NCBI GenBank assembly: GCA_040756875.1
Contig: JBFLYH010000003.1
Location: 224,001-288,000, forward strand
Length of the DNA: 64,000 bases
Reading direction: 5' to 3'
Origin: a candidate division FCPU426 bacterium
Lineage (GTDB): Bacteria; Oederibacteriota; JAAXVQ01; JAUVAV01
Shown: positions 13,201 to 24,247 of the stretch, in pieces
Layout of the letters: each line of letters opens with the position of its first letter
Numbering within the stretch: the stretch's first letter is position 1
Notes under the pieces: generated by a model
Database searches by the model: none
Seen by the model: the letters and a program-made list of their open reading frames with translations, nothing else
What the model was told of the DNA's origin: nothing
Position numbers and translations under genes: made by a program

Positions 13201-14424
13201 TCAGTAATAGTAGTTGAGGGAAGCGTACAGCAGATCCGGGTAAATGCCGAATTCGGAAAGCCATTGTCCTGATTCCGGGTTCTTCCCCAGGCTGATGAAC
13301 CCGCCGATCCGGCCTTCCACCTCGTCGGCCAGGCTCACGGTCAGGCCCGGCGCCGCCAGAAGCGAGGCATCCGCCAGGTTCCACAACACCTGCGCCGAAC
13401 CGGAAATCAGAGGCGTGATTTGCACCGTGAGCCCCGGAGCCAGATACTGACGCCCCATCAGGTAAACCGACCCCTGGGTGTAGGCGTCGCGCGCGAAGAG
13501 GCCGGGATACCCGGCGGGATCGGACCCGCCCGCGCCGTTGTAGTGGTACTCGACGAATCCGTACCAGCCGTCCGCCAGGTTGTAGTCCGCGCCGGCGGAC
13601 AGCCGGAAATAATCGGCGCCTGCCCGCCGGCCCGCGAACAACCGGTCGAAAACATAGGCTGACTCCAGCCAGACGCTGGCGCCGCCCACGGCCCGGGCCA
13701 GGTCCAGGCCCAGCAGCCCGTGGTCCCTGAATTTCAGCAGCAGGAGCGAGGCGTCGGTTTCGAGGATATACACCTTGGGTTTGACGAACCAGGCACTGTT
13801 TTTATATTTAGCGTCGCGGCCGAACACCCAGCCTGCGTCCGCTTCGCCCATCTCGCCCAGGGGTGTGCGGAAACGGACCGCGTCCACACCCGTCCGCTCT
13901 TCCTTGTCGATGGTCTGATAGGTGAAAGGCGCCAACACGTCCGTGGGATTGACCGCTTTGGCCGAACCAAAGGCCACGGGCTGCCGGCCGAGGGTCAAAT
14001 CGCCGAAGCCGAACGACAGGGCGACGGAAGCGCGGTCCAGGTTTTGCGTAAGGACAAAATTGGCGACCGGATCGCCCGGCGCCGGATAGAGGCCCGCAGC
14101 CAAGTCGGCGGCCCGGTAGGCAGCGGCATCCGGCTGCGGCAGGCTCGCCAGGGCCGCGGTGCCGCCGGTGATGCGGGGAGACAGCTCGTAGGCCGCGGTC
14201 ACGGCCACTTGATCCGCGGGTTTCCATTCGCCTTTCAGTCGGAACGGCCCCGTGGCCTCGCCCTCCGGCGCCGTACCGGCTCCGGCTTGAAAAGCCAAAA
14301 GGTAGGTTTTGTAATACCCGCCGAAATGCCAGACCGCATTCTCGCCATCCGCCGCCGCGGCCGAAGCCGCCCAGGCCAGGCCGAGCGTCAGGCCCGCGGC
14401 TGCCATCCCCGCCAGCCGGTTCAT
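13201..14424 (-). CDS. Outer membrane beta-barrel associated with the LolA-like/ABC operon
   Basis: Signal peptide; LDRA..GRQPVAFG..NPTDVL..GVDAVR; aromatic C-terminus YYY; ATGA overlap with the ATPase gene. Confidence 0.75.
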   Translation of the reverse strand: MNRLAGMAAAGLTLGLAWAASAAAADGENAVWHFGGYYKTYLLAFQAGAGTAPEGEATGPFRLKGEWKPADQVAVTAAYELSPRITGGTAALASLPQPDAAAYRAADLAAGLYPAPGDPVANFVLTQNLDRASVALSFGFGDLTLGRQPVAFGSAKAVNPTDVLAPFTYQTIDKEERTGVDAVRFRTPLGEMGEADAGWVFGRDAKYKNSAWFVKPKVYILETDASLLLLKFRDHGLLGLDLARAVGGASVWLESAYVFDRLFAGRRAGADYFRLSAGADYNLADGWYGFVEYHYNGAGGSDPAGYPGLFARDAYTQGSVYLMGRQYLAPGLTVQITPLISGSAQVLWNLADASLLAAPGLTVSLADEVEGRIGGFISLGKNPESGQWLSEFGIYPDLLYASLNYYY

Positions 14425-15152
14425 CTCCGGGCCGGCCGTCGGCGCACATCGTCTTTCTCGATCCGGCCGTCCTTCAGTGTAATCAACCGCGAGGCATGCG
14501 CCATGATGTGCGGATCGTGCGTGGAAAAGATGAACGTCATGCCCTGCTTGCGGTTCAGGTCTTGCATCATGTCAATCAGGGTTTCCCCGGTTTTGGAGTC
14601 CAGGTTGGCCGTGGGTTCGTCGGCTAAAATGATGTCGGGTTGCGAAACCATGGCCCGGGCCACGGCCACGCGCTGCTGCTGGCCGCCGGACAGTTGGGCG
14701 GGCCGCCGGTTTTCAAATCCCTGGAGACCGACCTCCTGCAAAATCCCGGCAACGCGCCTCGCCCGTTCCGCGGGCGGAACTCCCTGCAGCAGCATGATGT
14801 ATTCGATGTTTTCACGCGCCGACAGCACGGGGATCAGGTTGTAGGACTGGAAGATGAAGCCGATGTGGTCGCGACGGAAATCGGACAGGGCGCTGCCGCT
14901 CATGCGGTTCAGGTCCTGGCCTTTGAGCAGCACGCGTCCCGAAGTGGGTGCATCCAAGCCGCTGATGAGGTTCAGGAACGAAGTCTTCCCCGATCCCGAG
15001 GGACCGACCACGGCCGTGAATTCACCCGGTTGGATGGCCAGGGAAACCTGGCGCAGGGCGTTGACTTCGATTTCGCCGCTCCGGTAGACTTTGGTCAGTT
15101 TATCGGTCTGTATCAGGGGTTCGGCGGTTTTCGTGGTTTTGGCTTTGGCCAT
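14421..15152 (-). CDS. ABC transporter ATP-binding protein (LolD/MacB-like)
   Basis: GPSGSGKT, LSGGQQQRVA, ILADEPT. Confidence 0.95.
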   Translation of the reverse strand: MAKAKTTKTAEPLIQTDKLTKVYRSGEIEVNALRQVSLAIQPGEFTAVVGPSGSGKTSFLNLISGLDAPTSGRVLLKGQDLNRMSGSALSDFRRDHIGFIFQSYNLIPVLSARENIEYIMLLQGVPPAERARRVAGILQEVGLQGFENRRPAQLSGGQQQRVAVARAMVSQPDIILADEPTANLDSKTGETLIDMMQDLNRKQGMTFIFSTHDPHIMAHASRLITLKDGRIEKDDVRRRPARR

Positions 15153-15180
15153 GTCGGACTCCTTCAGGCGGGCGCCCGCC

Positions 15181-16407
15181 TTATAAAGATCGCTTCATCG
15201 CTTTGGCCGGCTGCAGGCGGGCCGCGTACACGGCCGGATAGATGCCCACCAGCACGGTAAAAACGAACAACCAAGTCGGATACACCAGGTATTGATACGA
15301 CCTCGCCACCGGATAGATCATGTCCTTGATGGTGACGCCCGTGAATTCCAGCCCCCGGTAATCAATGCCGACGGCCTGGTAGAAAACGGTCAGGCCCCAA
15401 CCCAGGATAATGCCGATGGCGATGCTGACCAGGGCCAGGGAGGCGGATTCCAGGAGGATCATAAAGGCCACGCCCGAAGGCCGCGTACCCACGGCCCGGA
15501 GCACGCCGAACTCAAACATACGCTCGTACAAGGACATGAACAGCGTGTTCATGATGCCGAAGGATACGATGCCGAACAGCACCACGGCCATGATCAGCAG
15601 CGAAAACATGGACATGTCCATCAGGGATTTGAGCTCCGGAAAGAGCGCGGTCCAGCTCAAGGCCTCGTTCCCGTCGCGTGAATACTTTTGCCAAAAGGGC
15701 AGATTCGGGTCCGAGGCGGTCTTGAGGTCCTTAAAAGCCACGGCGATTTCGTGCACACGGCCGCCAAGCTGGAGCAGTTGCTGGGCTTTGGCCAGCGGGA
15801 TGAACGCCATGCCCCGGTCCATTTCCCGCACCTTGAATTCGAAAATGCCGCCGACCCGGAACATTTCTTGCGACAGCTCGCCCGTGCCCGCCTGCGCCAC
15901 GGTCAGCACCAGACGGTCTCCCAGGTCCACGCCCAGGTTTTCGGCCAGTTTGCGGCCGATGAGGATGCGGTTCTCCGCGCCGGCGTCTACGTAATCGCCC
16001 GCCGCCACAACTTCCGCCAGGCGGGACACGCGGCGTTCCGGCTCCGGCTCCACGCCGTACAACAGGATCGAACCCACGTCAGCCGCGGAACTGAGCATGG
16101 CAAAGCTCAGGACCCTGGGGGCGAAGGCGCGCACTTCGGGTTCCTTCCCCAGTTCAGCCAGGATGCGGTCCGCATCGGCCACCGTGTCCTCCACCTCAAG
16201 CGTCTTGCGGAAATGGAGGTGATGGATCTGCGCCTGGCCGGGAAAGGTGGCCGTGGCGGTCAATACCATGTTGTCCATCATGCCCAGCATCATGGCGTCA
16301 AAAAAGATCAGGGTCGCCAGGCCCAGGCCGATGGCCAGGCCGGAGAGCACGGTGCGCCGGGTATTGCGGAAAAGGTTGCGCCAGGCCAGTTTGAGCAAAA
16401 GCAGCAT
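15181..16407 (-). CDS. ABC transporter permease, FtsX/LolE-like
   Basis: LAWRNLFRNTRRT; MSLYERMFEFGVLRAVG; 4 TM with a large periplasmic domain. Confidence 0.92.
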   Translation of the reverse strand: MLLLLKLAWRNLFRNTRRTVLSGLAIGLGLATLIFFDAMMLGMMDNMVLTATATFPGQAQIHHLHFRKTLEVEDTVADADRILAELGKEPEVRAFAPRVLSFAMLSSAADVGSILLYGVEPEPERRVSRLAEVVAAGDYVDAGAENRILIGRKLAENLGVDLGDRLVLTVAQAGTGELSQEMFRVGGIFEFKVREMDRGMAFIPLAKAQQLLQLGGRVHEIAVAFKDLKTASDPNLPFWQKYSRDGNEALSWTALFPELKSLMDMSMFSLLIMAVVLFGIVSFGIMNTLFMSLYERMFEFGVLRAVGTRPSGVAFMILLESASLALVSIAIGIILGWGLTVFYQAVGIDYRGLEFTGVTIKDMIYPVARSYQYLVYPTWLFVFTVLVGIYPAVYAARLQPAKAMKRSL

Positions 16408-16429
16408 CCATTGCCTCCGATACGCCGAT

Positions 16430-17647
16430 CTAGGTGCGGATCGCTTCCACGGGACGGAGACGGACCACCCGCGCCGCCGGAATCATGGCCACCAGCACCG
16501 CCGTGCCGAACGTCACCAGGCCGGAAATCAGGAAGCCCCTGGCCCGCAGGGAGCCGTACATGGTGTCGACCACCACGCCGCCCATGTCCATGCCCGCGGG
16601 GTACGGAATGCCGTGGTTCGCCAGGTAGAGGTTTGCCGCCAGTCCTGCGAGCCCCCCGACCGCGCAGCTCAAGAGGGCCAACCAGCCGGTTTCGAGCAGG
16701 ATGAGCGCGAACATCCGTGCGGGCCTGGTGCCCAGGGCTTTCATCACACCATACTCGCGGGTCCGCTCCAGCACCGACATGAGCACGGTATTGAGCACGC
16801 CGATGGCCACGATCAAGACGATGATGAGCAGGGTGATCCACATGCCTTCCTTGTCCGCGATCATCGCACGATAGAACTCCTGAGCCACGACTTCCCAGGG
16901 ATCCACCTCCAGGGCCGGATCGTCCAACGCTTTGGCGATTTCGCGGGCCGCCTGCCGGGAGCGGGAAAAATCGTCCAGCACCACAGCCAGTTCGTGTACG
17001 CGGCCCTGCATCGCCAGGAATTCCTGAGCCGCGGCCAGGGGCAGGTAGCACTCGGAATCACCGGCCAGCATGCTCCCGCCCTTCAGGACCGCCACGATTC
17101 TAAACAAATCGTTGGCCACCGAACCGTCGGCCGCCTGGGTGATGAGCACCAGGTCGTCCCCCACCCCGGCTTTGAGCAATTCGGCCAACCCCGCGCCGAT
17201 CATGACTTCTTTGGCCGCGCCGGATGACAAAAACTTCCCTTGGCTTACGCGGCCGGACAACCGGGTGGTCTGCGCTTCCCGGACCGGATCCACGCCGACC
17301 AGCCGCGCTACCGTGGTTTTTTTGCCGATGAACGCCAGCGCGCCGGAATAGACCCGGGGCGCCCAGCTGCGCACGCCCCGCACCGAGGCCGCGCGCCTGC
17401 CTACGGCTTCGGCATTTTCGAAGGAGGTAAACAAGGTCGGCTTTTCGAGGTATCCGCGGGCGTGGATCTGCACATGGCCGGTCGCGGCCGAGGTGAAGGC
17501 CTTTATCGCCGTGTCATAGGTCCCGTCGGAAACGCCCACGGAAAGCGACAGCAGCGCAAACCCGCCGGCCATGGTCAGGCCGGTCAGCAAGGAACGGCGG
17601 CGTTGCCGGAACACGTTGCGCCAGGCGAGGATCAGGAGCTGGGGCAT
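16430..17647 (-). CDS. ABC transporter permease, FtsX/LolC-like
   Basis: LAWRNVFRQRRRS; MSVLERTREYGVMKALG; start at MPQLL. Confidence 0.92.
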   Translation of the reverse strand: MPQLLILAWRNVFRQRRRSLLTGLTMAGGFALLSLSVGVSDGTYDTAIKAFTSAATGHVQIHARGYLEKPTLFTSFENAEAVGRRAASVRGVRSWAPRVYSGALAFIGKKTTVARLVGVDPVREAQTTRLSGRVSQGKFLSSGAAKEVMIGAGLAELLKAGVGDDLVLITQAADGSVANDLFRIVAVLKGGSMLAGDSECYLPLAAAQEFLAMQGRVHELAVVLDDFSRSRQAAREIAKALDDPALEVDPWEVVAQEFYRAMIADKEGMWITLLIIVLIVAIGVLNTVLMSVLERTREYGVMKALGTRPARMFALILLETGWLALLSCAVGGLAGLAANLYLANHGIPYPAGMDMGGVVVDTMYGSLRARGFLISGLVTFGTAVLVAMIPAARVVRLRPVEAIRT

Positions 17648-17660
17648 AAGTCCGCCTTGT

Positions 17661-18419
17661 TCAAAGCTTTTTTTGCAAATTGCGCAGGGAAAACACCGAC
17701 TCCGGCACTCCCTGGTCGAAGGTGGCCTGTTTGTATTCAATGACGGTCTTGTTGCCGGGTTTGCTGGCCGAGGTCAGTTCCATGATGGCCGGGATCCGTC
17801 GGTCGCCGAAGGTCCGCACCTGCTTGAAGGCGATCACGCGCATCTGCCGGCCCTTTTCGTCGTAATACTCGTCCCGGACCGGCAGCAGGCTCCGCTGGTC
17901 CACCACGGCGATGATCTTGCCCCACACCGAGGCGGTCTGGGCCTTGGGGCGCAGTTCCACGTAGTAATGGTCCGGATCACCGGCCGGCGAGGGCAGCAGC
18001 GCGGCCGTATAATCGTCCAGCAGCGTGGTCTCTTTGACCAGGTCGTCGTTGGTGAAATCCGAACCCATCCAGGAGCCCATCATCATGGACGGCGGAACTT
18101 TCATGACCTTGTCGATCTTGGGAAAGTAATTCCACATCTCCTGCTTATTGCGCAGCGTGGCCACGCCCCGGTCCTTGGCCGGCGAGAGGATGCGGATGAA
18201 GGTCTTGTCCATGCCTTGGGACCAGGCCTGCATGAGCAGGGTGCGCTGGTAATTGGGGGTGGTCACGGTCATTTCCATTTCAGCGTAGCTGTCCTGCGCG
18301 CGGTACAGCCGGTCCATGGCCGAGACGATGGTCTTCACGTCCGGCGAGGATTCCCCGGCTCCTGAAGATGCGATGGCCAGCAGGAGCGAGGCAGCCAATG
18401 TCAAGCTGAGGGGGCGCAT
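17661..18419 (-). CDS. Outer membrane lipoprotein-sorting protein (LolA-like)
   Basis: Signal peptide; RILSPAKDRG, SWMGSDFTNDDL, FSLRNL. Confidence 0.9.
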   Translation of the reverse strand: MRPLSLTLAASLLLAIASSGAGESSPDVKTIVSAMDRLYRAQDSYAEMEMTVTTPNYQRTLLMQAWSQGMDKTFIRILSPAKDRGVATLRNKQEMWNYFPKIDKVMKVPPSMMMGSWMGSDFTNDDLVKETTLLDDYTAALLPSPAGDPDHYYVELRPKAQTASVWGKIIAVVDQRSLLPVRDEYYDEKGRQMRVIAFKQVRTFGDRRIPAIMELTSASKPGNKTVIEYKQATFDQGVPESVFSLRNLQKKL

Positions 18420-18629: not shown

Positions 18630-19253
18630 TCATTTCCGGATTTTGAAGAAAAAAGTCTGCTGCCCGTTGCGCAGGACGACGTCCCGTTCAATGCGGGAAA
18701 AACCCGCACTCCGCAGGCTATTTTGTACTTCTCCGTCCGTATAGCGCCGGAACACGCCTGCCACGGCAAAGGGGAGCTGTCCCAACCGCTCGGGGCCCGA
18801 GAGATACATGACCAGGCAGCCGTCCTTGTCCAGCAGGCGGTGGATTTTGGAGAACATGCGGGGGAGATCGTCCCAGAAATACACGACATTAATAATGAAG
18901 ATTTTGGTGAATGTCTCGGCGCCGAAATCATGCCCGCTGAACTCGCCCAATGCCAGCCTGACCTGCTGCGAACGCAGGGCCGCCCGGTTGTTGCGCGCGG
19001 CCTTGCGCAGCATCAGGCGGGAGAAATCGAGGCCTAGAATCCGGCAGCGCGGGTTTTGTTCCGTGATCTGCCGGATGGCCAGCCCGGTCCCGAACCCGAT
19101 CTCCAGGATCCGGTCCTCGTCCTTGACCTGCAGCAGGTTCACGACCCGGTCATAGCATTCCTGATTCCTTTTTTCCATGACCCGGGCGACCCAATGGCCC
19201 AGCCAGCCGGCCGGCTTTCTGAATTGTTTTCCCACCCAGCGGTATAGAAACAT
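18630..19253 (-). CDS. Class I SAM-dependent methyltransferase
   Basis: QFRKPAGWLG, ILEIGFGTG, GLDFS, NVVYFW. Confidence 0.9.
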   Translation of the reverse strand: MFLYRWVGKQFRKPAGWLGHWVARVMEKRNQECYDRVVNLLQVKDEDRILEIGFGTGLAIRQITEQNPRCRILGLDFSRLMLRKAARNNRAALRSQQVRLALGEFSGHDFGAETFTKIFIINVVYFWDDLPRMFSKIHRLLDKDGCLVMYLSGPERLGQLPFAVAGVFRRYTDGEVQNSLRSAGFSRIERDVVLRNGQQTFFFKIRK

Positions 19254-19351
19254 GTCCTGGGCTTCCCTTTCAAACGCGCGCGGACCGTTTCCGGCCCATG
19301 ACAGGCACCTGGCGGACTGAATCCGCAGTTTCCTGCGGCGCCGGAGGATTC

Positions 19352-19380
19352 ATTGTAAAAGGCAGGGCAGGATTAAACAA
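19352..19380 (-). promoter_or_regulatory. Putative sigma70 promoter of the methyltransferase
   Basis: TTGTTT-N17-TACAAT on the minus strand. Confidence 0.5.
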
Positions 19381-19403
19381 GGGAAAGCTCGGCTTTGCGT
19401 AAT

Positions 19404-19440
19404 AAAAAAGGCCGCGAATCCTACTCCGGATCCGCGGCCT
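19404..19440 (-). terminator. Intrinsic terminator after the Cys-rich peptide gene
   Basis: AGGCCGCGGATC-loop-GATTCGCGGCCT followed by a T run on the minus strand. Confidence 0.8.
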
Positions 19441-19461
19441 GTGGATAAACCGCACTTCCTT

Positions 19462-19542
19462 TCAGCACCAGCAGCAACAACAATCACATTCAGTTTCACG
19501 AGCAGTTTTGGTTTTGCGGCTTGCACGTTTCTTGGCTTTCAT
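19462..19542 (-). CDS. 26-aa Cys-rich peptide MKAKKRASRKTKTARETECDCCCCWC
   Basis: RBS AGGAGGTG 6 nt before ATG; TGA at 19462-19464; terminator directly downstream; below the ORF-track length cutoff. Confidence 0.75.
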   Translation of the reverse strand: MKAKKRASRKTKTARETECDCCCCWC

Positions 19543-19618
19543 GGCCACACCTCCTGTCATCCTCATCTTCTTTCATAAATTTAGACACCGGTGAAGCGTT
19601 TGGGGTCCCTGGCTAACT

Positions 19619-20239
19619 TTAGAATGCCACGCCCAGGCCGATCCCCAAGCCGAAGAAAACTCCCCCGCCGAACGTGCTGCCGCCCACGCTGACCGAACCG
19701 ATGGTGAAGCCCAGAGCCAACGAGGGCGAAACCACGAAAGCAACCTGGTCGCTCACCTGGAACAGCAGGCGGTATCCGCCTTCTGCCCGGGGGGTGAGAA
19801 AGAATCCCGAAGCCGTCTGACCGGCGTTGCTGTAGCTGAACCCGTATACATCCATCCCCGGACCAACCCACAAGCCTTCCTGCGGGCTGACATTGTCCAG
19901 GACAAAGAAACGGTAGCTGGCCCCGGCGCCGAACCCGCCGCCGAACAGAATGCGGCCGGCCAAGGCCGCGGTGGGCGAAATCAACCGCTGGTACTCCAGA
20001 TTGCCCAGGCCGAAGGCCAGGCCCACGGGATCGAAGGTGACGCTGTTGAGCGGATTGAAATTGGATTCGGAAAAATGATGCGTGTAAGAACTGCGGCGGT
20101 TCGACTTGACCACCTTTTCGGTCTTGCTGGCCGTTGACTTGGACTTGGCTTTTGATTTGGCCTTGGCCTCGGCCATTCCCGCGCTTCCGGCCACCAGCAA
20201 AGCCAACGCCACAAGCATCGCACTTCCTTTGCGCAACAT
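19619..20239 (-). CDS. Small outer membrane beta-barrel protein (DUF3575-like) with Lys-rich N-terminal extension
   Basis: RBS GGGAGGGG; signal peptide; NLEYQR, GASYRF, alternating strands, terminal Phe. Confidence 0.7.
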   Translation of the reverse strand: MLRKGSAMLVALALLVAGSAGMAEAKAKSKAKSKSTASKTEKVVKSNRRSSYTHHFSESNFNPLNSVTFDPVGLAFGLGNLEYQRLISPTAALAGRILFGGGFGAGASYRFFVLDNVSPQEGLWVGPGMDVYGFSYSNAGQTASGFFLTPRAEGGYRLLFQVSDQVAFVVSPSLALGFTIGSVSVGGSTFGGGVFFGLGIGLGVAF

Positions 20240-20252
20240 GGCACCCCTCCCG

Positions 20253-20296
20253 AAAAAAATCGCCCTCCCGAGGCCGCTGGCGCCGGGAGGGCGGTT
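20253..20296 (-). terminator. Intrinsic terminator after peroxiredoxin
   Basis: CGCCCTCCCG / CGGGAGGGCG stem then T run on the minus strand. Confidence 0.65.
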
Positions 20297-20310
20297 ACAA
20301 ACGGACATGC

Positions 20311-21129
20311 TTACTTCTTTTTCTTGGTCACCGCGTCCATGACTTTTTCTTTATCCAGTTTCTTGGTGCAGAAAAACCAATCGTAGCATTTCATGTCCGC
20401 CTTGCCTTCCATGCGTTCCTTGGCGATGCCGCAGGACCCGGCCGGTGGCACGATCACATCGTCGCCAGGACGCCAGTCAGCGGGCGTGGCCACGGAAAAG
20501 GCATCCGCTGTCTGCAGGGCCACCACGACGCGGTAAAGTTCGTCGAAATTCCGGCCCAAACTCAGCGGGTAGTAGACAATGGCGCGGATTACGCCTTTGG
20601 GATCGATGAAAAAAACCGCGCGCACGGCCTTGGTCGAGCTCTCGCCGGGCTGGATCATGCCGTATTTTTTGGCGACTTCCATGGTGATGTCTTCGATCAG
20701 AGGGAACTTGACTTCAACGTTCTTCATGCCTTTGTACTCGATCTTTTCCTTGATAGTCCTCAGCCACGCAATGTGGCTGTAGAGTCCGTCCACGGACAAA
20801 CCGACCAGCTTGCAGTTCACTTCCGCGAACTTGCCTTCCAGAGAAGCGAACGTTATGAACTCCGAAGTGCAGACCGGAGTGAAATCCGCCGGATGGCTGA
20901 ACAAAATCACCCAACTGCCCGCGTACTGGTCCGGGAAATTGATTTCGCCCTGCGTGGTCACTGCTTTAAAAGCCGGCGCTTTTTCGCCGATGCGCGGCAT
21001 ATGCGTTGCCTGAACCTGGGTTTCCATGCTTCCTCCTCCTGATTCTGCAAATATGGAAGTTGCTGTGAAAAGCAACCCCACGGCCAGCCCTGCTGCAACC
21101 ATGCTTCTGCCCATTCTGCTCAAACTCAT
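20311..21129 (-). CDS. Peroxiredoxin (Prx6/archaeal TPx type); alternative start at 21027
   Basis: FSHPADFTPVCTSE, VRAVFFIDP, YPLSLGRN, TPADW, CYDWFFC. Confidence 0.95.
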   Translation of the reverse strand: MSLSRMGRSMVAAGLAVGLLFTATSIFAESGGGSMETQVQATHMPRIGEKAPAFKAVTTQGEINFPDQYAGSWVILFSHPADFTPVCTSEFITFASLEGKFAEVNCKLVGLSVDGLYSHIAWLRTIKEKIEYKGMKNVEVKFPLIEDITMEVAKKYGMIQPGESSTKAVRAVFFIDPKGVIRAIVYYPLSLGRNFDELYRVVVALQTADAFSVATPADWRPGDDVIVPPAGSCGIAKERMEGKADMKCYDWFFCTKKLDKEKVMDAVTKKKK

Positions 21130-21396: not shown

Positions 21397-23277
21397 GTGC
21401 AAGTTAACCCATTCTTTATTCGCGGACACAAATACGGCCATGCGGCTTTTTATCTTCTATTTGGACTGCTGATTTGCCGCCTTCAAGCCTGGGGTGCGCC
21501 GAATATCGACCTGGACACCGCTGCTTATCCCAAAGGCTTGAAGGAACCCACGGCCGAGGAGACGGCCTGGTGGAACCAAAAGGCCGTAGTGCGGACGGAG
21601 GTTCCGGTCACGGCCCTGGGCCTGTCGCGCATGCAAGCCGCCGGCCGTTTGCCTTCGGCCCTCCAGCCCTCCGCGGGCACATTCCAGCCCCTGGCCATGA
21701 CGCCCCAGGCCTTCCCCTCTGACCTGCAGGAAGGCAACCTGCCGCCTGAAGTGGACAACAGCCTGCTGGACGCTTTTCCACCCATCCGCTCGCAAGTGGG
21801 CGGGTCGTGCCAGTCGTGGTGCACCACCTATTATCAAATGACTTACATGACCGCCCTAGTCAAGGGCTGGAACGCCAAAACCGGCACGGACGATTACCGT
21901 TTCTCCCCCCGCTGGACCTACAACTTCATCAACGGCGGCGCGGACAACGGCGCCTCGATGTACGCGGCCGTCCGGCTGGAAACGTGCAACGGCGCGGCCC
22001 GCTGGAGCGATTTTTACGCCGGCGTGACGCCCGTGTTCACGGCCTGGCCCCTGGACGCCGCGGTCTACCAGCGGGCCGCCGGTTCCCGGATCAGCGCCTT
22101 CGGCAGCGTCAGTCAGCTCGGCACGGCCGAAGGGCTGGCGAAGCTCAAGGCCTATCTCAATAACGGCAGCATCCTGTTTTTCGGCACCTTTATTTCCTCG
22201 TGGGCCGGCACCACGGTTTCCGATGATCCCTCCCTGGCCGAGGACGCGGCCTGGGTCGGCGAGCGGGCCTGCCATTACATGCAGAACACCAACCTGGGCT
22301 CGCACTGCATGACTTGCGTGGGATACAACGACACCCTGTGGATCGACGTCAACGGCAACGGCCAGGTGGACGCCGGCGAAAAAGGCGCCCTGAAAATCGC
22401 CAATTCCTGGGGCACGGGCTGGAACAACCGGGGATTCATTTGGCTGGCGTACGACGCCCTGCGCCAGGTTTCGGCGGTCCCCGGCGCCCCAACCAACCGT
22501 TCCGCGGCCTTCTCCTCCGCGTCCTGGATCGAGGTCAGCGACGACAACGCCCCCCGGCTGCTGGGCAGCATCACCCTGCGGGCCGTGCACCGGGACCAGG
22601 TGTGGCTCGATTTTCTGCGCACTTCGACCCAGGCGCAGGAGCCGTTCCCCTCGCCTGAGGAGCAATGGGGCGGATACATCTTCTATAGCGGCGCTTTTTC
22701 CGCCGGGTCCTTCGGCTTCGACGGCCTCGACTATACTTCAAATCCAGCCGACGCGCCGGCGGTCACGTTCGTGTTCGACCTGACGGAGATCGCCCCGGCT
22801 GACCTTGAACCGCACCGCTACGTGGCCCGCGTGCGCAACCAAACCTCTCCTGGCATCGACGTTTCTTCGTTCACTTTGTCCGGCGGCGCGGACCAGGCTG
22901 TCCTGGGCGCCTGCGCCGCCATGCCGCAATCCGCCGCAGCCATGGACACGGTGTACGCTTTCGCCGACGCGCCCACGCGCGCAGCCTGGCTGCGCCGGGC
23001 CGACGACCTGACTCAGGTGCGCGTTTTCCCCAATCCCTGGCGCGGAGACCGCCACGCCGCCCTGCCGGTTTACTTCAACCACCTGCCGGCCGGCAGCACG
23101 GTGCGCATCTACACTTCCTCCGGCCGGCTGTGCCGGACGCTTTTCGCGGGCTCAGGCTACGCGGGTTGGGACCGGCGCGAAGAAGCGGGCACCGAGGCCG
23201 GCCGCGGGGTATATTTCTACTCGGTCCAGGACACTTCCGGAAACCATCGCGAGGGAAAATTTGCCATCATCCGTTGA
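21397..23277 (+). CDS. Secreted papain-like C1 cysteine peptidase with T9SS-like C-terminal domain; start uncertain
   Basis: QVGGSCQSW (Cys), GSHCMTCVGYND (His), IANSWG (Asn); VFPNPW..IYTSSGRL..WD..GVYFY..GKFAIIR. Confidence 0.88.
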   Translation: MQVNPFFIRGHKYGHAAFYLLFGLLICRLQAWGAPNIDLDTAAYPKGLKEPTAEETAWWNQKAVVRTEVPVTALGLSRMQAAGRLPSALQPSAGTFQPLAMTPQAFPSDLQEGNLPPEVDNSLLDAFPPIRSQVGGSCQSWCTTYYQMTYMTALVKGWNAKTGTDDYRFSPRWTYNFINGGADNGASMYAAVRLETCNGAARWSDFYAGVTPVFTAWPLDAAVYQRAAGSRISAFGSVSQLGTAEGLAKLKAYLNNGSILFFGTFISSWAGTTVSDDPSLAEDAAWVGERACHYMQNTNLGSHCMTCVGYNDTLWIDVNGNGQVDAGEKGALKIANSWGTGWNNRGFIWLAYDALRQVSAVPGAPTNRSAAFSSASWIEVSDDNAPRLLGSITLRAVHRDQVWLDFLRTSTQAQEPFPSPEEQWGGYIFYSGAFSAGSFGFDGLDYTSNPADAPAVTFVFDLTEIAPADLEPHRYVARVRNQTSPGIDVSSFTLSGGADQAVLGACAAMPQSAAAMDTVYAFADAPTRAAWLRRADDLTQVRVFPNPWRGDRHAALPVYFNHLPAGSTVRIYTSSGRLCRTLFAGSGYAGWDRREEAGTEAGRGVYFYSVQDTSGNHREGKFAIIR

Positions 23278-24247
23278 CCTTTGCATCCGTTCCTGCGGAA
23301 CGGTTCTGCTGGCGGCCGCGCTGCTGGGCCTGTCCCTGGCGCCTGTCCGGGCCGATGACATTGCCCTGCTCGACCTCGGGCCAGGCACCCGGCCAGCGGC
23401 TCTGGGCCAGGCCTACGTCGCCCTGGCGGACGACGTGCACGCCGTATTTTGGAATCCGGCCGGGCTCGGCTATTCACGCCGGGTCCAGGCCCAATTCATG
23501 CATCACCAGTGGTTGCAAAACAGCACGGCTGAATACCTGGCTGCCGCCTATCCCGTCGGCCCGGGCACCGCGGGCCTGGCCTGCGGCCTCATGCAATTCG
23601 GCGAATTCGACGCTTACGACGAATATGAACAGCCCCAGGGAAGTTTTTCGGCCCTGGAGGGATATGTCAGCGGTGCCTATGGCTGGTCGTTTTTCCCCGG
23701 CGCCTCCTGCGGCGCCGCGCTTAAGCTTCCGTTTTCCTCCCTGGCCGACGACACCCGGCTGGGCGTCAATGCGGACGTGGGGGCGGCTTATGTTTTCCAG
23801 ACCGTGCCGGTCATCCGCGCGGGCGCGGCTGTCGCCAATTTTCTGACCTGGGGCCTGGCCGGGTCGGCCGCGGAAATCCGGCTGGGCCTGGCCATCCAGG
23901 AAAAAAGCGGGCTGCAGCTCAGCGTGGAGGCTGACCGGCGCATCGTACCCGGCTTATGGTTCCTGCGCATGGGCGCGGAGTATGCCTGCACGCGCTGGGT
24001 GGCGCTCCGCCTGGGGCACATGCAGCCCCTGGCTGATTCCGGGCTTCCGGGTTATGGGTTGACCGCGGGCGTGGGGTTCCACGTGGAGGTCGAGCCTTTG
24101 GTTTTCGACGTGGGGTATGCCTATGCGCCGTACGGCCCCTTGGGCCAGACGCACCGGCTGGATTTGACCGCCGAGCTCCCTGATTTCTTCCGGCCTGCGG
24201 CCGCGTCTCCGCTTCCGCTGGCTCCTGCCAAAAAAACTAAGAAATAA
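23261..24247 (+). CDS. PorV/PorQ-family outer membrane beta-barrel
   Basis: GTRPAALGQAYVALADDVHAVFWNPAGL; YAYAPYGPLGQTHRL. Confidence 0.9.
   Translation: MPSSVDLCIRSCGTVLLAAALLGLSLAPVRADDIALLDLGPGTRPAALGQAYVALADDVHAVFWNPAGLGYSRRVQAQFMHHQWLQNSTAEYLAAAYPVGPGTAGLACGLMQFGEFDAYDEYEQPQGSFSALEGYVSGAYGWSFFPGASCGAALKLPFSSLADDTRLGVNADVGAAYVFQTVPVIRAGAAVANFLTWGLAGSAAEIRLGLAIQEKSGLQLSVEADRRIVPGLWFLRMGAEYACTRWVALRLGHMQPLADSGLPGYGLTAGVGFHVEVEPLVFDVGYAYAPYGPLGQTHRLDLTAELPDFFRPAAASPLPLAPAKKTKK

Follow-up and report, generated by a model that had tools for sequence, protein, structure and literature searches.

A 64,000-nucleotide (nt) stretch of DNA from a candidate division FCPU426 bacterium (GenBank assembly GCA_040756875.1, contig JBFLYH010000003.1, positions 224,001 to 288,000; the whole stretch is called the window below) encodes on its minus strand a micro-protein of 26 residues, MKAKKRASRKTKTARETECDCCCCWC, within a 365-nt gap between the genes of a 229-residue secreted protein and a methyltransferase. 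Analysis of the locus and of its counterparts in related genomes identifies a genuine, independently terminated micro-gene that is predicted to be efficiently translated, and the peptide is very probably made and under selection. The gene is real and conserved, it stands independent of its neighbors, and the family that it defines has no known homologs; its carriers are a few uncultured bacteria of groundwater type. Our best guess at its role, to which we give a rough probability of 0.35, is that of a cytoplasmic, cationic thiolate-cluster micro-protein that would bind soft metals or metalloids, or would buffer thiol stress.

The peptide consists of two modules, a polybasic N-terminal half with a net charge of +6 to +7 and a cysteine tail in which the block CDCCCC is followed by an aromatic residue and one or two further cysteines. 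Six of the last eight residues encoded in the window are cysteines, as an earlier note on this DNA had read them behind a basic N-terminus and as the translation confirms. Cysteine makes up 23-25% of the peptide in the three genomes that carry it (6/26 residues in the window, 6/25 and 7/28 in the other two), versus ~0.85% in the long frames of the window's genome. No hydrophobic segment can be read in the sequence; the peptide therefore appears to lack an export signal and is placed in the cytoplasm. The minus-strand open reading frame (ORF), its ribosome-binding site and a terminator 21 nt after the stop codon are all found at the positions that the earlier note gave for them. The terminator hairpin spans 19440-19409, is followed by TTTTTT, and is present in both the minimum-energy and the centroid folds.

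Conservation of the gene was assessed by a scan, run with a backwards control, of all 99 available genomes of the phylum for codons that spell CDCCCC. The pattern occurs at eight places in 7 of the 99 genomes, versus none in the control; three of the eight are the peptide gene, and five are other frames or CTG-type repeats. The three carriers are the window's own genome (G000), its congener G001, whose peptide is MKRNRKAKKTSAQAGCDCCCCLWAC, and G014, which belongs to a different family of the same order and encodes MKRHKAIRSKRKTEKLPVCDCCCCFCGC. Both species of the window's genus and one of the three species of the genus of G014 thus hold the gene, with ORF lengths of 78-87 nt. Invariant among the three peptides are M1, K2, a KT pair, the CDCCCC block and the last cysteine, and an aromatic residue (W, W or F) stands after the cysteine block in every case. 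Lysine and arginine fill 8/18, 6/15 and 8/18 positions of the N-terminal parts despite sequence drift. Across the six codons of CDCCCC, the genomes show synonymous differences at four and non-synonymous differences at none. Terminators follow the ORF at all three loci, with stems of 13 bp in the window, 13 bp in G001 and 12 bp in G014; their sequences are unrelated, and they begin 21, 16 and 8 nt, respectively, past the stop codon. The frame and its cysteine codons, whose conservation in relatives had been proposed as a check, are therefore both kept in G001 and G014, and the earlier description of a stand-alone peptide gene holds.

The same comparison fixes the start of the peptide. The Shine-Dalgarno (SD) motif CAGGAGGTG, a spacer of 5-6 nt and the sequence CATGAAA are invariant in the DNA alignment of the three genomes, and because of this spacing and this invariance the start is assigned to 19542 and not to the upstream ATG of a 34-residue frame at 19566. 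A second short frame, ATGAAAGAAGAT..., lies at 19496-19573 on the minus strand, opens ~30 nt upstream of the peptide ATG and overlaps the peptide gene out of frame; by reading, the frames upstream of the peptide in G001 and G014 show no conservation with it. Selenocysteine read-through of the TGA was considered and rejected, since the stop codon of G014 is TAG and the downstream frames are unconserved.

The cysteine tail alone is not beyond chance, as 18 stop-to-stop frames end with at least five cysteines among their last ten residues in this 3.2-Mb genome of 60% G+C. A second CCCCWC site in the same genome was rejected as a further copy, having no start codon, SD site or terminator and lying in an open GC-rich region. 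The peptide gene rises above chance because its whole architecture is kept in two other genomes. No flanking DNA is common to G014 and the window, and the ORF is nonetheless kept in G014. A search with 261 nt of locus DNA against 41 related genomes matched the window only, all else being fragments no longer than 50 nt. When the three peptides are combined into a profile, it recovers them in the phylum with E-values from 1.6e-15 to 2.5e-11, scores that are circular for these same three sequences, and the next best match has an E-value of 0.008. Weak profile matches in two further genomes were rejected as chance: the frame in G007 lacks a start codon, and the one in G012 lies within a 165-residue ORF in another frame.

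Beyond the phylum, the profile found nothing at E-values up to 1e-4 in 1435 genomes sampled in four other phyla (232 centered on a Cloacimonadaceae genome and 401 each centered on a genome of the Planctomycetota, Bacteroidetes and Verrucomicrobia). A pattern scan of assembled genome contigs gave at least 119 loci; the known G014 copy is not among the matches listed, and among these 44 frames have a short tail after the motif and none has the family architecture. Six loci were returned by a metagenome scan that required an SD site, in none of which the matched ATGAAR opens the motif frame, and 30 by a viral scan, none of them family-like. The three peptides and the 34-residue frame match no Pfam family at E-values up to 10, and there is no match in the PDB (profile search), Rfam or Atlas. 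Five forms of the three peptides, looked up exactly, are absent from a collection of 15 billion proteins. The profile likewise had no match among 1.84 billion representative proteins, which is weak evidence because such ORFs mostly fall below the limits of gene callers. The minimum length used by common gene callers exceeds 78-87 nt, and this would explain the absence of the peptides from databases. Among the papers found by literature searches on cysteine-rich, polycysteine and metallothionein-like small proteins, none deals with a peptide of this design. The peptides therefore form an orphan family among the cysteine-cluster micro-proteins, and the arrangement of a polybasic carrier, CDCCCC, an aromatic residue and a cysteine is new.

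The chemistry and role that we infer for the peptide follow from its composition and from a loose genomic context. In the favored reading, the tail thiolates, acting alone or as a small oligomer, would form a polynuclear cluster with Cu(I), with Zn or Cd, or with As(III). A dimer or oligomer is the probable form of such a cluster, because a single ion cannot be wrapped by four contiguous cysteines. Alternatively, the thiolates could serve as a sacrificial sink that takes up oxidants and electrophiles. In either case, the cysteine-rich, aromatic tail would be kept soluble by the cationic half, which may also hold it at an anionic surface, for example a membrane or nucleic acid. The earlier note had proposed either a metal- or redox-binding micro-protein or an orphan precursor of a peptide that is ribosomally synthesized and then modified post-translationally (a RiPP); the first of these stays the best guess, and the second is weakened by the lack of an MNIO, YcaO or SPASM match in the genome, as set out below.

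Several observations weigh against a thiolate micro-protein. First, the design departs from known metallothioneins, which use CxC, CxxC and CC motifs, so that contiguous cysteines are unusual, and which in their classical form contain no aromatic residue, while W or F is conserved here; nor does Pfam reveal any sequence relationship to metallothionein. Second, the family is very narrow, and the peptide is therefore dispensable for most relatives. Third, the sequencing runs that match the locus comprise one DNA run, which may stem from the source sample, and no RNA run. Finally, the theme read from the surrounding genes is guilt by association over three loci, two of them congeneric, and no gene for a metal sensor, efflux pump or chaperone is conserved beside them.

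Very small metallothioneins, such as the fungal Cu(I)-metallothionein of ~25 residues with seven cysteines, and the bacterial SmtA/BmtA and MymT types, are the nearest point of comparison. The peptide shares with them its size class, a cysteine content of about one quarter, a stand-alone gene, the lack of an export signal and a presumed metal-thiolate chemistry. It differs from them in its four contiguous cysteines, its conserved aromatic residue, a polybasic half without counterpart and the lack of a linked metal-sensor gene. No match to a metallothionein family model of the PF02069 type was obtained with Pfam at E-values up to 10 or in the PDB profile search. Mass and cysteine content fit the composition of classical metallothioneins, and the W, W and F of the tails do not. 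The peptide would work most like a very small metallothionein, yet it lies outside that class by the sequence and compositional criteria applied.

An unrelated 18-codon ORF with the same CDCCCC block, MSDTDCCDCCCCKSGKCC, was noticed in a metagenome-assembled genome of the Gaiellaceae (L104:2017-2073, plus strand). This ORF has a good SD site, AAAGGAGGA, and a hairpin downstream. An arsR-family gene (HTH_5, E 2.4e-19, with the motif ECCVCDL) is divergent to the ORF, the two ATG codons being 53 nt apart, and a MIP channel gene comes after the regulator gene; downstream of the ORF lies a convergent gene for a YchF-type GTPase. The ORF may be a metalloid-linked cysteine micro-ORF or a product of chance. 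It agrees in direction with a thiolate role, but we treat it as a lead only, because the exact CDCCCC pattern occurs in just 1 of 201 sampled genomes of its order.

The genes that surround the peptide gene are given together with its own signals in Table 1.

Table 1. Position and basis of the features at and around the peptide locus (coordinates count from the first letter of the window).
Feature	Position	Strand	Basis or remark
Micro-protein coding sequence, MKAKKRASRKTKTARETECDCCCCWC	19462..19542	minus	26 codons + TGA at 19464-19462; translation
Shine-Dalgarno site, AGGAGGTG	19548..19555	minus	5 nt before the ATG at 19542
Intrinsic terminator	19400..19440	minus	13-bp stem, 9 G-C pairs, 6-nt loop, T6 tail
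GGGACC-N17-GTCTAA, match resembling an extracytoplasmic function (ECF) promoter	19581..19609	minus	motif reading; doubtful significance
229-residue secreted protein ending ...GLGVAF, putative outer-membrane barrel	19619..20308	minus	no Pfam match
1-Cys peroxiredoxin	20311..21129	minus	AhpC-TSA 4.8e-31, 1-cysPrx_C 2.3e-11
Class-I S-adenosylmethionine (SAM) methyltransferase	18630-19253	co-oriented with, and downstream of, the peptide gene	Pfam
Operon: LolA_like, two MacB_PCD/FtsX permeases, ABC ATPase, 407-residue protein without Pfam match	13201-18419	minus	Pfam
Outer-membrane protein	13201-14424	minus	no Pfam match

Pfam supports the earlier naming of the peroxiredoxin, the methyltransferase, the LolA-like protein, the permeases and the ABC ATPase, and gives no match for the barrel and the outer-membrane protein named alongside them. 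In the window and in G001 the gene order peroxiredoxin, barrel, peptide is the same. The barrel has orthologs of 74% identity in G001 and 79% identity in G011; the peptide gene follows the barrel gene in G001 and is absent beside it in G011. No terminator-like hairpin is reported between the barrel and peptide genes in the window, so that the peptide gene may be co-transcribed there with those of the barrel and the peroxiredoxin. The G001 barrel gene is directly followed by a small hairpin, which leaves the peptide gene with a terminator on either side, and the next gene past the terminator of the peptide gene is convergent and encodes a protein with a Por_Secre_tail domain. Within 5 kb of the G001 locus there are genes for a catalase-peroxidase-like protein (Pfam peroxidase, E 6.3e-72) and an LTXXQ protein. 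The G014 peptide gene stands between the genes of a PGAP1-like hydrolase and a nitronate monooxygenase, with genes for an HxlR regulator, a nitroreductase and a DtxR-FeoA regulator further on; we take the HxlR, nitroreductase and nitronate monooxygenase genes to be a redox/thiol-stress set. The neighbors of the three peptide loci are thus not conserved, and what the loci share is a loose thread of redox/thiol-stress genes nearby.

A functional link of the peptide to the methyltransferase or to the LolA/ABC operon, which had been suggested earlier, does not withstand this comparison. G001 lacks an ortholog of the methyltransferase (best match 29% identity, E 4.9e-7), and the G014 ortholog, of 55% identity, lies on a different contig; the enzyme was accordingly rejected as a partner of the peptide, since it is not co-conserved with it. 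A LolA_like/MacB/ABC block is also found near the G001 peptide locus, with two inserted plus-strand genes between.

Some neighboring proteins deserve mention in their own right. The peroxiredoxin carries a hydrophobic, signal-like N-terminal extension of ~30 residues, with the Pfam match beginning at residue 47, which suggests either an exported enzyme or a mis-set start. The barrel, which has no Pfam family, has matches in 11 of 41 related genomes and a second copy in its own genome (G000, contig C1, 3596-4060), and looks like a member of an uncharacterized family of small outer-membrane proteins across the order. On the plus strand of the window, a 626-residue protein without Pfam match (21397-23277) is followed by a UPF0164-like protein (23261-24247, E 2.3e-05). 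The Por_Secre_tail protein of G001 (L012:336-1274, plus strand) is Pro/Thr-rich, and its domain match has an E-value of 2.4e-05, just under the cut-off. Together, these proteins hint at a type-IX-like secretion system in the phylum.

How transcription of the peptide gene begins was examined through two proposed promoters. GGGACC-N17-GTCTAA is present upstream of the gene, as the earlier note had seen, and its likeness to an RpoE/ECF promoter was the note's further claim. The exact motif occurs once in the genome versus twice in a reversed-sequence control, and a loosened form occurs four times versus ten, so that it is not enriched; nor is it conserved at the G001 or G014 loci in the three-genome alignment. 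An ECF promoter for the peptide gene is therefore rejected, the motif being at chance level and unconserved. The sigma-70-like promoter placed after the terminator (19380-19352) does read TTGTTT-N17-TACAAT; its first hexamer matches at only 3/6 positions, and a promoter tool reported no sigma-70 promoter within 19200-19750. Elsewhere in the same genome, intergenic GGAACC-N17/18-GTCTAA sites occur near position 1,490,189 of contig C1 and position 435,285 of contig C2; they are directed toward genes whose secreted products measure 914 and ~224 residues, and could be genuine promoters of the ECF type. One more similar sequence falls inside the coding region of an ECF sigma factor, in its N-terminal part.

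Of the other roles that the peptide could have, a regulatory or structural one survives best, and we consider it unlikely without dismissing it. Such a micro-protein would bind a partner, for example a membrane complex, the ribosome or nucleic acid, or would carry an Fe-S or Fe(Cys)4 center, and its cysteines would serve as a redox switch or as cross-linkers. The strong SD site and the gene's own terminator fit an abundant small effector. Peptides that combine polybasic and cysteine-cluster character, such as protamines, bind polyanions and are cross-linked via disulfides or zinc, and vicinal cysteines ligate iron in the 36-residue desulforedoxin. However, no conserved neighbor at the three loci suggests a binding partner, the peptide has no hydrophobic helix for insertion into a membrane, and no structural or sequence relative turned up in the PDB or Atlas.

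Processing of the peptide as a RiPP precursor is a rather improbable role. The basic half would then be a leader, and the cysteine block a core modified by an enzyme encoded elsewhere, through thioether, thiooxazole or other cysteine chemistry. The layout of a leader-like part before a cysteine-rich C-terminus fits this, as do the invariant aspartate inside the cysteine block and, in the window, the SAM methyltransferase gene directly downstream; enzymes acting in trans or of a novel type are conceivable as well. Against this, the window's genome, which is 100% complete, has no match to MNIO (PF05114), YcaO (PF02624) or SPASM (PF13186), families that matched 1, 5 and 8, respectively, of 14 control genomes. 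The observation that the window holds no YcaO or SPASM maturase thus extends, with MNIO added, to the whole genome. The LanC-like family (PF05147) matched neither the genome nor any of the 14 control genomes, so that its lack of a match carries no weight here. The flanks of the three loci share no enzyme gene and contain no maturase of the MNIO, YcaO or SPASM families, the peptide locus comes with neither a protease gene nor an exporter gene, and the methyltransferase, as described above, is missing from G001 and lies on another contig in G014. No NCBIfam precursor model was matched at E-values up to 10.

Comparison with known classes of matured peptides leads in the same direction. SCIFF peptides and other ranthipeptides are matured by radical-SAM/SPASM enzymes. 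Like them and like MNIO substrates, the peptide is short and has a cysteine-crowded C-terminal part; unlike them, and these classes are defined by an adjacent maturase, it has none adjacent and none detectable in the genome. Cysimiditides are described as having two CXXCXGXG motifs, one on either side of an Asp-Gly, as depending on a methyltransferase homologous to PIMT, and as known from Actinomycetota alone (bioRxiv 10.1101/2024.10.02.616296). The peptide resembles them in that its cysteine cluster flanks an aspartate and that, in the window, a methyltransferase is encoded right beside it. It differs in having CDCCCC and no CXXCXGXG, its neighboring methyltransferase scores 17.6 bits against PCMT, below the cut-off of 20.3, and neither the G001 nor the G014 copy has that gene as a neighbor. 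The peptide therefore falls outside the cysimiditides.

A bolder variant would make the peptide the precursor or the active form of a ribosomal polycysteine natural product or cofactor belonging to a new class, neither metallothionein nor attenuator, in which a cationic carrier would be joined to a core of CDCCCC, aromatic residue and cysteine, and the core would be processed, or given a metal-sulfur cluster, by an enzyme family so far not tied to peptide maturation and encoded in trans. We regard this as decidedly improbable.

A role as a cysteine-sensing leader ORF, in which ribosomes pausing on the six or seven cysteine codons would govern either transcript termination at the hairpin or how the following gene is translated, is very improbable. 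In mycobacteria, short ORFs with runs of cysteine codons are proven cysteine-responsive attenuators; according to that study, these polycysteine ORFs are leaderless, head polycistronic mRNAs of cysteine metabolism and unmask the following gene's ribosome-binding site (Canestrari et al., bioRxiv 10.1101/834739). The peptide gene is likewise a short, unannotated ORF with consecutive cysteine codons, four in each of the three copies, where the mycobacterial type has at least two. A terminator follows in every genome, a co-oriented gene comes next in the window and in G014, and the G014 hairpin begins especially close to the stop codon. The resemblance ends there. Whereas the mycobacterial ORFs, as the study presents them, are leaderless and front cysteine-metabolism loci that they control in cis, the peptide ORF has a strong SD site and its own terminator. 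In G001 the next gene is convergent, leaving nothing downstream to regulate, and the genes downstream in the window and in G014 encode a generic methyltransferase and a nitronate monooxygenase, respectively, which have no relation to one another or to cysteine metabolism. Folding reveals no alternative antiterminator pairing, the region folding no better than its shuffles (z = -0.62), and the distance between stop codon and hairpin differs among the three loci; the pairing and the conserved geometry of a classical leader-peptide attenuator are thus both missing. Features other than cysteine, namely the aspartate, the aromatic residue, the KT pair and the basic charge, are conserved too. The earlier note had already considered an attenuator less likely because of the promoter-like sequence after the terminator; its judgment stands, for the better reason of the convergent gene in G001.

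Equally improbable is a conserved ORF that is functionless or selfish, or a chance ORF kept for another role of the DNA such as a small RNA, a reading that would suit the narrow and patchy distribution (3/99 genomes, 1/3 in the genus of G014), the DNA-only run that holds the locus and the 18 cysteine-rich frame ends of a 60% G+C genome, but that is opposed by the synonymous-only variation of the core, by a conserved start, SD site and charge that point to selection on the peptide, by the retention of the ORF in G014 without common flanking DNA and by the lack of an Rfam match.

Whatever its role, the peptide family shows cleanly how standard annotation can overlook coding capacity that is conserved. 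It also provides a negative example, in that a terminator after a short polycysteine ORF does not by itself make that ORF a cysteine attenuator. If the peptide is indeed a thiolate micro-protein, it would count as one of the smallest metal or thiol buffers that a bacterial gene encodes, and one of unusual design, with four contiguous cysteines, a conserved aromatic residue and a polybasic carrier.

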